Source of the DNA: an uncultured Candidatus Saccharibacteria bacterium
GTDB lineage: Bacteria > Patescibacteriota > Minisyncoccia > Minisyncoccales > UBA5738
Length of the DNA: 25,850 bases
Assembly: GCA_964404915.1 (NCBI GenBank)
Contig: CAYOLX010000003.1
Coordinates: 1-25,850 of the forward strand
Direction of reading: 5' to 3'
The notes below the pieces were generated by a model. The model had not been told where the DNA came from, searched no databases, and saw only the letters and a list, made by a program, of their open reading frames with translations. Positions 3,946 through 10,729 of this stretch are shown piece by piece (the stretch's first letter is position 1; the number at the start of each line of letters is the position of its first letter). A program made the translations under genes and the position numbers.

Positions 3946-5232
3946 ATGTTCAAAAAAAATATTGTTCGCAAATTGATTATGTTCTCGCTTTTCGTTTTGA
4001 CGCTGGCGATTTTTGCCGGAGCATTGATTGCCGCCGTCCAGGTTGTTGAGGATCCTTGCGGCACAACCGTTGTTTATAATAAGCCGGTGCCGAATTCCGA
4101 ATTCAAAGCGGGCGACGATCTCAATTTTTCCGGAAAATTAAGGGTGACGAGTTGCGGCGATGGCTTATTCTTTAATCGCATTACTTTCTATATCGCCGAG
4201 GACAAAGACATTCCGATTACTGTTACGACAACGGACGGGTCCAAATATCCTCTTAATTATGGAAATTGTTTTGGCGCGACCAGCTCAATATATGGGAGTG
4301 ATTGCTCCGGCATTAAGCGGGGCGATCAAGTGCAAATTTTGGATTTGAGCAAAGGATACAAAATAAGAAAATTAGGCACCATTTATCCGCCCGATATTTT
4401 TGAATATGACGGTGAAGGAGGTTTCAATTGGATTGAATATAATAAAAATTTCACGGTGCCTTCCGACTTGGGATTTGACGGGGATGTTCGTTTCTATGTT
4501 GAGTATTCCGGGGCGCATTGGAATACTCATTGGCACTGGTTAACTGCCTATCAAAAGGGGGAGATTATTCCCGCACCGCAGGCCAAGATTGTTTGCGACA
4601 ACAGCCAATGCGGTTCCGGGAGCAGTTGTTCTCCGATCGCGCGCGCGTATGAACCGATCGCCAAGCCATCTTTATGTTTTTATGTGTTGAGAAATAAATC
4701 AAAGGTCTCGGGTTTGGAGGAGTCAAATTGGTATGTCAAGCCGGCGGGATCATCCGATGGCACCTACGAAAAGAAATTGTCGTGCGGGTCGTTGTGTGAT
4801 TATGTTTTACAAAAGGATATGCCCGCCGGGAACACATACACGGTTAAGCTGGAAGTAAAAGATAAATACGGACAGTCGGACAATGCCACGATTGACGTTT
4901 ATGTCGCCAGCGAAATAAAAGCTGAATTTAAATGCGCGATATCATCCGCGGATCTCGTTTGGCGCGACTGCAAAGAGCTGTCTCATCAAATTGCCAGGGG
5001 GGGAAAAATGTGCTTAAAGGATATTTCGCGCCCTTCGGATGGAGCGGCAATCAATTCATGGCAATGGATGATAAATGATAAAATTGCCGGAAACGAGGAA
5101 GAAATTTGTTTTAACGCGGAAAGTGTCAATCGCATAAGACTGACGGTTTCCGACAGTAAGGGCAGGTCGGATTACAGCGAAGATTTGGTGAACGCAAAAC
5201 CAATCCCAAAGTGGGAAGAAGTGGCGCCCTGA
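3946..5232 (+). CDS. Hypothetical exported Cys-rich protein with C-terminal PKD-like domains
   Basis: N-terminal hydrophobic helix and 14 Cys. PKD-like segments YTVKLEVKDKYGQSD and DISRPSDGAAINSWQW...IRLTVSDSKGRSD. Ends in PIPKWEEVAP. Confidence 0.78.
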   Translation: MFKKNIVRKLIMFSLFVLTLAIFAGALIAAVQVVEDPCGTTVVYNKPVPNSEFKAGDDLNFSGKLRVTSCGDGLFFNRITFYIAEDKDIPITVTTTDGSKYPLNYGNCFGATSSIYGSDCSGIKRGDQVQILDLSKGYKIRKLGTIYPPDIFEYDGEGGFNWIEYNKNFTVPSDLGFDGDVRFYVEYSGAHWNTHWHWLTAYQKGEIIPAPQAKIVCDNSQCGSGSSCSPIARAYEPIAKPSLCFYVLRNKSKVSGLEESNWYVKPAGSSDGTYEKKLSCGSLCDYVLQKDMPAGNTYTVKLEVKDKYGQSDNATIDVYVASEIKAEFKCAISSADLVWRDCKELSHQIARGGKMCLKDISRPSDGAAINSWQWMINDKIAGNEEEICFNAESVNRIRLTVSDSKGRSDYSEDLVNAKPIPKWEEVAP

Positions 5233-8712: not shown

Positions 8713-8818
8713 GCCGAGATAGATCAGTGGCAGAGCAACTGTTTTGCGCCAGTCCCGTATAATTTGCCGAGATAGCTCAGTGGCAGAGCAACTGTTTTGC
8801 GCCAGTCCCGTATAATTT
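8713..8818 (+). repeat. Two tandem 53-bp units, each = tRNA-Thr 5' half (34 nt) + 19-nt linker
   Basis: 8713-8765 and 8766-8818 read GCCGAGATAG(A/C)TCAGTGGCAGAGCAACTGTTTTG + CGCCAGTCCCGTATAATTT. Confidence 0.92.
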
Positions 8819-8890
8819 GCCGAGATAGCTCAGTGGCAGAGCAACTGTTTTGTAAACAGTAGGTCGGGGGTTCGAATCCTCTTCTCGGCT
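8819..8890 (+). tRNA. tRNA-Thr(UGU), CCA not encoded
   Basis: Acceptor GCCGAGA/TCTCGGC, D arm GCTC/GAGC, anticodon arm ACTGT-TTTGTAA-ACAGT (TGT at 8851-8853), T arm GGGGG-TTCGAAT-CCTCT. Confidence 0.95.
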
Positions 8891-9020
8891 CAATCTAATT
8901 CTCGGCAAATTTTTACGGGATAAATAGGTCGGAGGTTCGAATCCTCTTCTCGGCTCAATCTAATTTTCGGCAAATTTTTACGGGATAAATAGGTTGGTGG
9001 TTCAAATTCTCTCCTCGGCT
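8891..9020 (+). repeat. Two additional tRNA-Thr 3' halves (8925-8955, 8990-9020) separated by 34-nt linkers, 65-bp period
   Basis: TAGGTCGGAGGTTCGAATCCTCTTCTCGGCT and the more diverged TAGGTTGGTGGTTCAAATTCTCTCCTCGGCT. Linkers are CAATCTAATT(C/T)TCGGCAAATTTTTACGGGATAAA. Confidence 0.9.
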
Positions 9021-9185
9021 CCCATAAAAATGGTTTTTTAAAGCTTGCCTTATCTTGGCGGTTTTTTTTCATTGTGTCGTGTGTTGAAGTTAAATTTTAA
9101 CACAGATTTAAAGTTGTTGAAATTTGATTTTAATACAACATCCTTTAATAAAAACCTCATCAAAATCCTGTTTTATCAACCAAAA

Positions 9186-9229
9186 CAAACCAATGTAAAT
9201 CTTGCTATCGCAAAATTTACATTGGTTTG
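9186..9229. promoter_or_regulatory. 44-bp palindrome immediately upstream of the PaaX-like gene (operator or recognition-site candidate)
   Basis: CAAACCAATGTAAAT-C-TTGC-TATC-GCAA-A-ATTTACATTGGTTTG: 19 of 20 arm positions pair. Confidence 0.7.
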
Positions 9230-9236
9230 GTAATAT

Positions 9237-9815
9237 ATGAATATGGGGACAAATAAGCGGGAAACCGCGAAAAATATTCTGCAATTTTTGCTTGTCGCGG
9301 GGGCGGTGGTTATTGCCGCGAGCAATCCGCGCTTTGGTTCTTTGCTTTTGCGCGGCGCGATGCGAGAATATAACCGCAAGAAAAGATTTCAAGCGAATCG
9401 GCAAAAATTTTACAGCGCTTTTACTTATATGCGCAAACACGGATTGATAGATATTCAATATGACGGCCGGCAAATGTATTTTTCGCTCACCGATGAAGGC
9501 AAGAAAAAAGCCGGTAAATATAAAATCAACGATTTAAAAATCAAGAAATCCAAAAAATGGGACGGCAAATGGCATATACTGATCTTTGATATTGAAGACA
9601 AGCAAAAAATCAAACGGGAGGCGTTGCGGGGAAAAATCAAAGAATTACACTTGTATCAGTTGCAAAAAAGCGTTTGGGTCTATCCCTATGATTTGGCAAA
9701 ACCGATGAAGCTTTTGCGGGAATTCTTCGGCTTGACTGATCAGGAGATAAGAATTATTGTCGCTGATCGCGTTGAAAACGATAAATCCTTGCGTATTTAT
9801 TTCGGTTTAAACTAG
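9237..9815 (+). CDS. PaaX-like transcriptional regulator (wHTH + Cas2-like ferredoxin-fold domain)
   Basis: wHTH segment FTYMRKHGLIDI...FSLTDEGKKK, then KWDGKWHILIFDI...REALR..IKEL..YQLQKSVWVYPYD. Start may be ATG 9243. Confidence 0.82.
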   Translation: MNMGTNKRETAKNILQFLLVAGAVVIAASNPRFGSLLLRGAMREYNRKKRFQANRQKFYSAFTYMRKHGLIDIQYDGRQMYFSLTDEGKKKAGKYKINDLKIKKSKKWDGKWHILIFDIEDKQKIKREALRGKIKELHLYQLQKSVWVYPYDLAKPMKLLREFFGLTDQEIRIIVADRVENDKSLRIYFGLN

Positions 9816-10000
9816 TTTTATATTTTGCCGGCAAAAATAATTCAAGCGGCTGAATTCAAACTTCAATTTATCGCGGGATTACCTTCGCGAATTATTTTTA
9901 TCGGGTTGCCTTCAAGTTATTTTTATCCGTCAGAATACCTCGGCGCTTGCTCCGGTGCAGTTTATTTATGGATAATTTTGTTAAATTTTAACAGAAAAAG

Positions 10001-10042
10001 AAACGATGTAAATTTTGCGATAGCAAAATTTACATTGGTTTG
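10001..10042. repeat. Second, inverted copy of the 44-bp palindrome downstream of the PaaX-like gene
   Basis: AAACGATGTAAATTTTGC-GATA-GCAAAATTTACATTGGTTTG. The loop GATA is the reverse complement of the upstream loop TATC. Confidence 0.85.
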
Positions 10043-10089
10043 AGCGGGGCTGAAAAATGATAAATTTTATCAATCACATTCTTTATATT

Positions 10090-10240
10090 TATTTTGAATT
10101 ACGAAGCTCTTATTCGGCAAGTATTTTTGCGGAGCACCAAAAATTTTATTGCTATAAAATTTCCTAGTATTTTGCGCCAGTCGCGCAAAATAATGCTCCG
10201 GCAAAAATACTTGTCTCAGCGAGTTTCGTAATTCAAAATA
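10090..10240. repeat. ~150-bp Y-shaped hairpin element, copy 1
   Basis: Outer stems TTTTGAATTACGAAGCTC/GAGTTTCGTAATTCAAAA, GGCAAGTATTTTTGC/GCAAAAATACTTGTC and GGAGCA/TGCTCC. These close two terminal hairpins, AAATTTTAT-TGCT-ATAAAATTT and TATTTTGCGC-CAGTC-GCGCAAAATA. Confidence 0.88.
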
Positions 10241-10268
10241 GGTAATATGCGTTTAGGATATACTTCTG

Positions 10269-10298
10269 TTGCTGAAAAATTATAGGTCATGATATAAT
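10269..10298 (+). promoter_or_regulatory. Putative extended -10 promoter for the coiled-coil gene
   Basis: TTGCTG(10269-10274), 18 nt, TATAAT(10293-10298), with TG at 10290-10291. Confidence 0.55.
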
Positions 10299-10327
10299 TA
10301 AGGAGCAGCTAAAAAACAATCAAAATC

Positions 10328-10729
10328 GTGGCGCAAAAGGCAAATAAAAAAAATAATAAAATTCAAGGATCTTCGCGCGAGGATCAGTTTGTGGTTTTGC
10401 TGGAAAACGTGCGTGATGAAATCAAATTAGTTGCCGAAGGCAATTTGATGCTGCGAGAAAGCATGGAGCGCGGTTTTAAAGAAGTGAAAAAAGAGATAAG
10501 CGGTATAAAAAACGAAATGATCATTGTGAAAGCTGAAATAAGCAATATCAAAGATGAGATGAGCGATATGAAAACGGAGATGAGCGATATGAAAACGGAA
10601 ATGAGGATGGGGTTTAAGGGAATGATGGCCGAAACGCTGGCGATTGATGAAAAAATGGATAAAAAAGCCGATAAAAAAGATTTGTTGGTTTTAGAAAAAC
10701 GCGTCGCCAAATTGGAACCTGCCCGCTAA
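10328..10729 (+). CDS. Hypothetical heptad-repeat coiled-coil protein
   Basis: GTG start with upstream AAGGAG. Heptads EISGIKN EMIIVKA EISNIKD EMSDMKT EMSDMKT, including an exact 21-bp tandem duplication at 10556-10597. Confidence 0.8.
   Translation: MAQKANKKNNKIQGSSREDQFVVLLENVRDEIKLVAEGNLMLRESMERGFKEVKKEISGIKNEMIIVKAEISNIKDEMSDMKTEMSDMKTEMRMGFKGMMAETLAIDEKMDKKADKKDLLVLEKRVAKLEPAR

Follow-up and report, generated by a model that had tools for sequence, protein, structure and literature searches.

The stretch analysed here (the window) is 25,850 nucleotides long and represents positions 1 to 25,850 of contig CAYOLX010000003.1, from an uncultured Candidatus Saccharibacteria bacterium (GCA_964404915.1, designated G000). 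Just 3' of a tRNA-Thr gene it carries a small gene, designated mini-PaaX, that lies between two long palindromes, P1 and P2. The gene neighbours in the window are rpsB, tsf, the tRNA-Thr gene, pheS and pheT. The G000 assembly comprises 859 kb in 121 contigs at 44.5% GC, is 93.5% complete, and contains the mini-PaaX gene in single copy. Patescibacteria have tiny genomes and few recognisable regulators. The central features of the locus are as follows.

8819-8891, plus strand: tRNA-Thr (TGT), called by ARAGORN and scoring 71 bits with the Rfam tRNA model; its 3' flank is an insertion hot spot.
9186-9229, unstranded: P1, the upstream cognate palindrome, with outer arms CCAATG-N24-CATTGG and centre TTGC-TATC-GCAA.
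9228-9236, plus strand: predicted extended -10 box TGgTAATAT, abutting P1; it was read from the sequence, and the layout recurs in homologs.
9237-9815, plus strand: mini-PaaX gene, encoding 192 residues with a predicted winged helix (about 45-95), a Cas2-like PaaX_M domain (about 106-182) and an invariant Asp118, and without PaaX_C.
10001-10042, unstranded: P2, the downstream cognate palindrome, with centre GATA.

P1 has 20-nt arms with one mismatch around the loop TATC; in P2, 13 arm pairs (10006-10035) are perfect, the arms continue outward with one indel, and the loop is GATA. The 13-nt arm of P2 is the longest perfect arm in the window, and the maximum in 40 first-order Markov resamples was 11. 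The long palindromes that a preliminary description of this DNA had placed on both sides of the gene are thus where it put them, at lengths that exceed chance. The arms of P1 and P2 are inverted repeats of one another, 93% complementary over 42 nt, with a centre-to-centre spacing of 813 bp (family median, 722 bp). The palindrome is not restricted to this locus. A third copy is located in G000 at C111:1660-1689, 73 nt from the contig end, and an orphan palindrome of another type, TCTTCTAAATTTTGCATATGCAAAATTTAGAAGA, is located at C34:4313-4355 (core 4321-4350), about 110 nt 3' of tRNA-Trp. The C34-type site is 95-97% identical to sites around a different mini-PaaX paralog in a Minisyncoccales metagenome-assembled genome and in the genome G006; its cognate gene was not found in G000. 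A synteny comparison for solo palindromes indicated that the genomic contexts of the C34 site in G000 and of locus L034 in G006 differ.

The open reading frame (ORF) at 9237-9815 matched the Pfam model PaaX_M (PF20803) with an E-value of 1.3e-17 and 64.1 bits, against a cut-off of 24. The protein stops after this middle domain: PaaX_C (PF08223) had no match in the protein or in G000, and the Pfam PaaX N-domain had no match in the protein. The score with the NCBIfam PaaX equivalog, TIGR02277, was below its cut-off (39.8 vs 264.55), as were the scores with two Cas2 models (PF09827, 16.3 vs 23.8; TIGR01573, 16 vs 24.5). In the AlphaFold 2 model, the C-terminal domain had a predicted local distance difference test score (pLDDT) of 80-92, and the low-pLDDT N-terminal part consisted of three helices followed by a beta-hairpin, which reads as a winged helix. 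The best Foldseek match was E. coli PaaX (8A39, E = 3.7e-7), followed by Rv0674 and 3L09, then by winged-helix regulators and Cas2 proteins. With phmmer, residues 61-124 aligned to residues 60-122 of 8A39 (E = 1.5e-4), a span that takes in the recognition helix and the wing and reaches the first strand of the Cas2-like domain; the family invariant I-F-D-I stands where PaaX has L-L-S-E. A profile search of the family alignment against PDB sequences gave no match at E-values up to 0.01. About 435 relatives were identified at E-values below 1e-5. All named ones belong to Patescibacteria, and their database annotations vary among Cas2, PaaX, ArsR and hypothetical. The gene product is probably a minimal PaaX-type DNA-binding protein without a ligand domain.

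The positions of the upstream sites point to a role at the promoter. In the family, the median distance from the end of the upstream site to the start codon is 37 nt, and a TATAAT-like hexamer (at least 5 of 6 positions) was present within 20 nt on the gene side of 33 of 54 sites, 15 of the hexamers being perfect. By comparison, such hexamers were found on the far side of 16/54 upstream sites and on the two sides of 10/41 and 11/41 downstream sites, against a background of 29% in shuffled sequence of matched composition and 12% at positions chosen at random. Here, P1 runs into the TGgTAATAT box and the candidate ATG start codons at 9237 and 9243 lie directly past it, so the mini-PaaX mRNA is likely leaderless and would start at one of the two. 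Since the upstream site abuts a -10 box, it is placed as a promoter-overlapping duplex operator would be, and we infer that P1 is an operator over the promoter of mini-PaaX itself, spanning the spacer through the -35 region. Among 127 arm mismatches in the family, 68 were A.A or T.T, which keep the A/T tract and lose the pairing, and G.T and A.C mismatches were balanced (20 and 17). A site outside the predicted transcript, the A.A/T.T mismatches and the lack of terminator tails at downstream sites together favour recognition as duplex DNA over an RNA hairpin. A hairpin in the sense-strand RNA was rejected, as the arm mismatches have no overall G.U excess.

Pairing of gene and sites across the family

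The mini-PaaX family is present in 25 of 61 related genomes, with up to 7 copies per genome. The pairing test used 83 non-identical units, each with 250 nt or more of sequence to either side, and compared their 300-nt flanks. The longest exact word common to both flanks was at least 13 nt in 61/83 units and in 6/83 mismatched-locus controls; at 15 nt or more, the counts were 52/83 and 1/83. Only 1 of 77 other ORFs at the same loci had such a flank pair. Flanking palindromes had been expected in homologs, and the paired flanks fit that expectation. In about 85 of 95 palindromes GC-N4-GC forms the centre, next to it comes an A/T tract, and beyond that an outer arm that varies; paralogs inside one genome differ in this arm. 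The outer arm co-varied with the N-terminal domain when the C-terminal domain was controlled for (partial rho 0.13, permutation p = 0.003), and the reverse covariation, of the C-terminal domain with the N-terminal domain controlled for, was absent (p = 0.46). Perfect palindromes account for 39 of the 95, and arm lengths reach 30. The mini-PaaX gene with its palindromes is a recurring unit with locus-specific sites across the family. In one intergenic region of G003 (L138:1160-1230, on C9), two palindromes of different mini-PaaX types lie 9 nt apart.

A downstream site was present in 28 of 62 units in which the next gene is co-directional and in 11 of 18 in which it is convergent. Since downstream sites occur with either orientation of the next gene, they belong to the module itself. 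Two other roles were considered and rejected. An intrinsic terminator is not supported, as a T-run follows only 5 of 41 downstream sites. An operator of the next gene fails in general, given the sites of the 11 convergent units, and is further disfavoured because a -10 box follows downstream sites in 10/41 cases, no more than in shuffles; at this locus the promoter of the neighbour lies 250 bp further on and is common to genomes with an empty site.

Insertion beside tRNA-Thr and the origin of P2

The order rpsB, tsf, orf194, tRNA-Thr, pheS is kept in 9/9 compared genomes of the same genus, and mini-PaaX is absent from the tRNA-Thr site in all nine. The gap after the tRNA is filled in diverse ways: a short spacer alone in G008, G011, G002 and G007 (in G007 plus a nested half-tRNA), and a RAYT (repetitive extragenic palindrome (REP)-associated tyrosine transposase) gene with REPINs (hairpin-forming REP doublets) in G001 and G006, while G004 has bare hairpins, G012 a Cys-rich ORF and G005 a radical-SAM gene. 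A coiled-coil ORF lies between the tRNA and pheS in three of the nine (G008, G011 and G005). In metagenome run X10, a contig joins position 8892 to 10342. The position that mini-PaaX occupies in G006, beside thiI, is empty in G000. Empty sites and varied contents at one spot identify the 3' flank of tRNA-Thr as an insertion hot spot, and the comparison indicates that the block is an accessory gain-or-loss unit inserted there. The preliminary description had proposed insertion just 3' of the tRNA with empty-site alleles, and this was borne out, the locus not being syntenically fixed. Its further proposal, of a cassette with defined ends, is not supported for the palindromes: DNA homology of the cassette between G000 and G006 starts at 9193, inside the left arm of P1, but the right end is not at a palindrome, and a radical-SAM gene came in with the same block.

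That gene is seen in relatives. In G006 (complete, 1.16 Mb) and at the P0004 locus, where a protein 72% identical to mini-PaaX is encoded on a 150-kb contig, the order is thiI-like gene, palindrome, mini-PaaX, palindrome, radical SAM, palindrome, MGMT-like gene, and the radical-SAM gene is intact (282 residues, PF04055). In L048, a contig of another sample with a mini-PaaX 97% identical and the same insertion beside tRNA-Thr, P2 is followed by the last 52 codons of the radical-SAM gene (E = 8.6e-12). Neither the radical-SAM nor the MGMT-like gene was found in G000. The radical-SAM gene after P2 in G006 and P0004, together with the remnant in L048, indicates that P2 once stood between mini-PaaX and a radical-SAM gene since lost in this lineage; within the family, the radical-SAM link is limited to this clade. 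An operator downstream of the gene had been called unusual for simple autoregulation. The site itself is real, but its presence here appears to have a historical cause, as it once preceded the radical-SAM gene. In L049 (1-6555) and L009, the mini-PaaX/radical-SAM pair lies near PolX with PHP, NUDIX, thiI-like and MGMT-like genes. In relatives a palindrome also precedes the MGMT-like gene, and the neighbourhood is DNA-repair-flavoured.

P1 and P2 share changes. L048 has an arm mismatch common to both palindromes, and P2 of G000 has a right arm of the P1 type. These concerted changes indicate that P1 and P2 exchange sequence. L048 also has TATC at both palindromes, and among ten family pairs with asymmetric centres, 4 were the same and 6 flipped.

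Self-repression weighed against other readings

The reading we favour, at a probability of about 0.6, is that mini-PaaX is a self-repressing PaaX-type dimer that reads the palindrome as duplex DNA, with the second site serving as an auxiliary operator or roadblock. The dimer would recognise its own palindrome of about 40 bp as double-stranded DNA, its wings presumably reading the outer arms (CCAATG...CATTGG), which are locus-specific and lie 24 bp from each other, and its conserved body presumably sitting on the conserved TGC-N4-GCA centre. Binding at P1 would shut off the gene's own, probably leaderless, promoter. P2 would probably act as an auxiliary site, in cooperative or looped repression or as a roadblock; downstream copies have neither promoter nor terminator features, which makes an auxiliary role probable, and DNA looping between P1 and P2 is possible. 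Binding itself, repression and the role of P2 are the parts that we infer; what was observed is the anatomy, the pairing of sites across the family, their adjacency to promoters, the existence of empty sites and the relic of the radical-SAM gene.

The closest known system is PaaX, which in E. coli W is a phenylacetyl-CoA-responsive repressor. PaaX proteins (8A39; Jannaschia 3L09; M. tuberculosis Rv0674, 3KFW) join a winged helix, at the N-terminus, to a Cas2-like middle domain, the layout predicted for mini-PaaX, and they are the best match in both fold and sequence among solved structures. PaaX controls its own expression by steric hindrance at the promoter, through the operator TGATTC-N27-GAATCA, and the widely spaced inverted half-sites of that operator (N27) resemble CCAATG-N24-CATTGG (PMC9493321). 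In contrast to PaaX, mini-PaaX lacks the PaaX_C ligand domain and paa genes, the whole 40 bp of its site is palindromic with a GC-N4-GC centre, and a second site follows the gene. The mini-PaaX family is also multicopy with paralog-specific sites, and has the Cas2-type Asp where PaaX has Ser-Glu. The looping repressors of the lac, gal and deo systems similarly place the same operator at the promoter and several hundred base pairs away. Unlike those, mini-PaaX has its second site beyond the 3' end of the regulator gene, no helical phasing and no known tetramerisation domain.

Several observations weigh against self-repression. The N-terminal half of the AlphaFold 2 model is of low confidence (pLDDT 40-70). 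The invariant Asp118 occupies the Cas2 metal-site position, where PaaX and Rv0674 have no such residue, and its retention could point to catalysis. The arm and the N-terminal domain co-vary weakly, among loci that are themselves related. An operator does not need palindromes as long as some in the family, whose arms reach 30 bp (L029, a perfect 60-mer). The spacing between the centres of the two sites, for which helical phasing was considered and rejected, shows none. Bare copies of the palindrome are dispersed (the complete genome G006 has 9, G000 has 3), a pattern that looks REP-like; similarity among the bare G006 copies is confined to the 30-36-bp palindrome, and their flanks are unrelated. 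Some palindromes persist without a cognate gene (the C34 type in G000 and the ATGTA type in G003). Finally, regulation of itself alone has no obvious benefit to the host.

Such dispersed and orphan sites are what a mobile or recombination cassette would leave, and this is the best-placed alternative, although we consider it unlikely. The palindromes would be where a selfish unit recombines or is copied, much like REP/RAYT, attC or lox sites, the bare ones would be empty or solo sites, and the gene with cargo such as radical SAM would move between palindromes. Such movement would suit the empty sites found at each of the two known positions (at tRNA-Thr in 9/9 congeners, at thiI in G000), the patchy multicopy distribution (25/61 relatives, up to 7 copies), the start of G000-G006 homology inside the left arm of P1, the three palindromes that partition two genes in G006 and L049, the concerted evolution of P1 and P2, and the genuine RAYT with its own REPs in the same layout in the same genome. 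However, the right end of the block does not lie at a palindrome, as L048 has no site after the radical-SAM stop codon, and no recombinase, transposase or HUH (histidine-hydrophobic-histidine) motif was found in the protein or in adjoining genes. Likewise, a target duplication was not found, and neither excision nor inversion joints were seen in contigs of four metagenome runs. Comparisons with phage, plasmid, PHROG and PADLOC data found no homologs among phages or plasmids and no membership, only weak LmuC and Cas2 matches. The promoter adjacency of the upstream sites is also better explained by regulation.

The REP/REPIN and RAYT systems resemble the mini-PaaX unit in having one gene between cognate palindromes and bare copies dispersed between genes, and genuine examples occur in G000 (C109) and, in G001 and G006, at the same tRNA-Thr site. 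They differ in that mini-PaaX is no HUH/Y1 transposase (Y1_Tnp, PF01797, had no match in mini-PaaX and matches true RAYTs at E = 5e-8), that the copy numbers of its palindrome are low (3 to 9), and that the upstream copy is integrated with a promoter. Unlike an integron cassette, the locus has no integrase in the window, which was the extent of that search, and mini-PaaX has its own predicted -10 box beside P1. Another reading, which we regard as improbable, is a self-propagating pair built on the Cas2 fold, in which the Asp domain would nick or pair the palindrome and so spread bare sites, the gene and cargo such as radical SAM. This would be REP/RAYT-like with an unrelated enzyme, and possibly a relative of the ancestor of CRISPR's adaptation module.

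A slim chance is given to the palindromes acting as hairpins of single-stranded DNA or RNA, or as cruciforms, that the Cas2-like domain binds or cuts. Asp118 is invariant at the Cas2 catalytic position, and the family shares with Cas2 and VapD the ferredoxin-like fold, its FDI...LQKSVW resembling the Cas2 YDI...vQ.SVF. In contrast to Cas2, the domain is fused to a predicted winged helix, the scores stay below the Cas2 thresholds, and Cas1 (PF01867) was not found in the genome (G000, 93.5% complete). The repeats in the window are not CRISPR-like, and the preliminary description was correct that the window has no paa operon, cas1 or CRISPR array; in all of G000, too, Cas1 and PaaX_C are without a match. 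Hairpin pairing would be in keeping with the long arms (perfect in 39/95, lengths to 30), with compensatory changes that keep pairing (CCAATG/CATTGG vs CCGATG/CATCGG) and with centre flipping between strains, which is typical of hairpin-mediated events. Among downstream-site mismatches G.T also exceeds A.C (13 vs 4), but there is no wobble bias overall and A.A/T.T mismatches dominate. Upstream sites precede a -10 box, terminator tails are lacking, and a dimer on duplex DNA predicts the symmetry equally.

That the segment from P1 to P2 is an invertible switch is hardly credible. In its favour are the inverted-repeat arms (93% complementary over 42 nt) and the opposite loops in G000 (TATC/GATA). 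Against it, a flip would carry the -10 box along with the gene and switch nothing, and wherever a unit has a detectable -10 box, this box lies towards the gene. Both palindromes of L048 have TATC, and family centres are 4 same and 6 flipped. No cassette-wide opposite-strand joint was seen in the contigs of the four runs, and no recombinase gene is nearby. The sole opposite-strand joint (9869 to 10035, run X10) is the flipped palindrome centre of L048; contigs may miss rare forms of a cassette-wide joint. The opposite loops had been read as the mark of an inverted copy, and the locus as a possible invertible unit. The first is contradicted by a centre that flips freely, and the second found no support in the contigs of the four runs.

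No published description of a mini-PaaX module was found in the literature searched, and this gene-plus-site module is widespread and, it appears, undescribed. New at this locus are a dated insertion with empty sites, the radical-SAM relic that would explain P2, and the REPIN origin proposed below for the first satellite repeat, as are the free centre flipping and the promoter-adjacency and mismatch statistics on duplex versus hairpin. Genomes under 1 Mb hold up to 7 mini-PaaX copies, each with a matched 40-bp site at both ends. If mini-PaaX is a repressor, the family would be a natural library of orthogonal protein/operator pairs and would offer a handle on gene control in unculturable organisms. 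If the Cas2-type domain instead acts on the palindromes, they would form a new kind of repeat-spreading system. The locus further connects the unit, in relatives, with a radical-SAM (SPL-like) gene and with an MGMT-like DNA-repair setting, and it lets a true RAYT/REPIN unit and a mini-PaaX unit be compared at a single hot spot.

Satellite repeats and other features of the locus

The remaining features around the gene are the following.

9045-9069, plus strand: terminator-like hairpin with a T-run after the tRNA block, aligning with G004, which lacks the gene.
9082-9134, unstranded: degenerate REPIN-type doublet of two inverted small hairpins, containing the first 14-mer (9089-9102).
9849-9867, unstranded: possible REP-like remnant GCTGAATTCAAACTTCAAT, also present in L048; the evidence for it is weak.
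9980-9993, unstranded: second exact 14-mer, in the A/T-rich spacer before P2, with no supported function.
10058-10072, unstranded: 15-mer TGATAAATTTTATCA, at the 5' edge of the radical-SAM relic.
10090-10240, unstranded: copy of a hairpin repeat of about 150 bp (inverted repeats I3 and I11), taking the place of the L048 radical-SAM remnant.
10290-10729, plus strand: coiled-coil neighbour, with predicted promoter TGATATAAT (10290-10298) and ORF (10328-10729); the promoter block aligns with G008 and G011.

The hairpin at 9045-9069 predates the cassette, as it aligns with the gene-free G004. The 14-mer GTTAAATTTTAACA is exact at 9089 and 9980, with a compensated variant, GATAAATTTTATCA, at 10059. 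At up to 2 mismatches it gave 6 strand-hits against 0.69 expected, so these satellites, which the preliminary description had listed, are present above chance. They had also been regarded as parts of the cassette, and this view was abandoned, as the first lies in a REPIN relic and the third at the edge of the radical-SAM relic, which indicates separate origins. The doublet at 9082-9134 is the best G000 match to the REPIN flanking the G006 Y1_Tnp gene (86% over 49 nt, E = 7e-6), can be aligned to an array of four hairpins in G004, where mini-PaaX is lacking, and is missing from L048 and from the abundant X3 strain, both of which carry the cassette. These alignments indicate that it is a relic of a RAYT/REP system and not of the mini-PaaX unit. 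The L048 counterpart of 9980-9993 is GTTAAATTTTTACA, with broken symmetry, and that of the 15-mer is TGATAATTTTTTTCA, which is asymmetric; the alignment of the L048 radical-SAM remnant begins at L048:1004, at about window position 10066. Satellites as sites of the mini-PaaX protein were rejected, since their symmetry is lost in L048 and the first is missing from L048 and X3. No further copies of the satellite 14-mers were found genome-wide in G000. The remnant at 9849-9867 is among four G000 sites within 3 mismatches of the G004 hairpin.

The RAYT-like Y1_Tnp protein at the tRNA-Thr spot (233 residues, HUH motif PNHFHLL) is encoded at L043:3674-4523 in G001 and L044:3868-4716 in G006, flanked on either side by REPIN doublets of GTTGAAATCAAATATCAAC. 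G000 has its own RAYT homolog at C109:1-1000, 55% identical to that of G006 and flanked by a different REP doublet, TAGCGATATCAAGTATCGATATTTGATATCGCTA. A different doublet beside a diverged RAYT indicates that RAYT/REP pairs diversify within the genus too. A further small hairpin, GGTGAGGTCAAACCTCACC, is dispersed in at least 10 copies in G000 (C42, C58, C68, C76, C77, C89, C91, C98, C110 and C121); several copies lie within 50 nt of contig ends, and its TCAAA loop is as in the G004 REP.

The 150-bp hairpin repeat had a contig depth about 50 times that of its flanks in the four metagenome runs, which marks it as a high-copy repeat in those populations. The coiled-coil ORF is syntenic in G008, G011 and G005, and its alignment indicates that it is under its own promoter and not controlled from P2.

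The tRNA-Thr gene is itself nested (window 8713-9021) in shells made of copies of its 5' half, at a 53-nt period, and of its 3' half, at a 65-nt period; the linkers are complementary. One shell is missing in L048, and similar extra half-tRNAs occur at the same gene in G005 (L040) and G007 (L046), so this nested arrangement is a recurrent one in the genus and differs from strain to strain.

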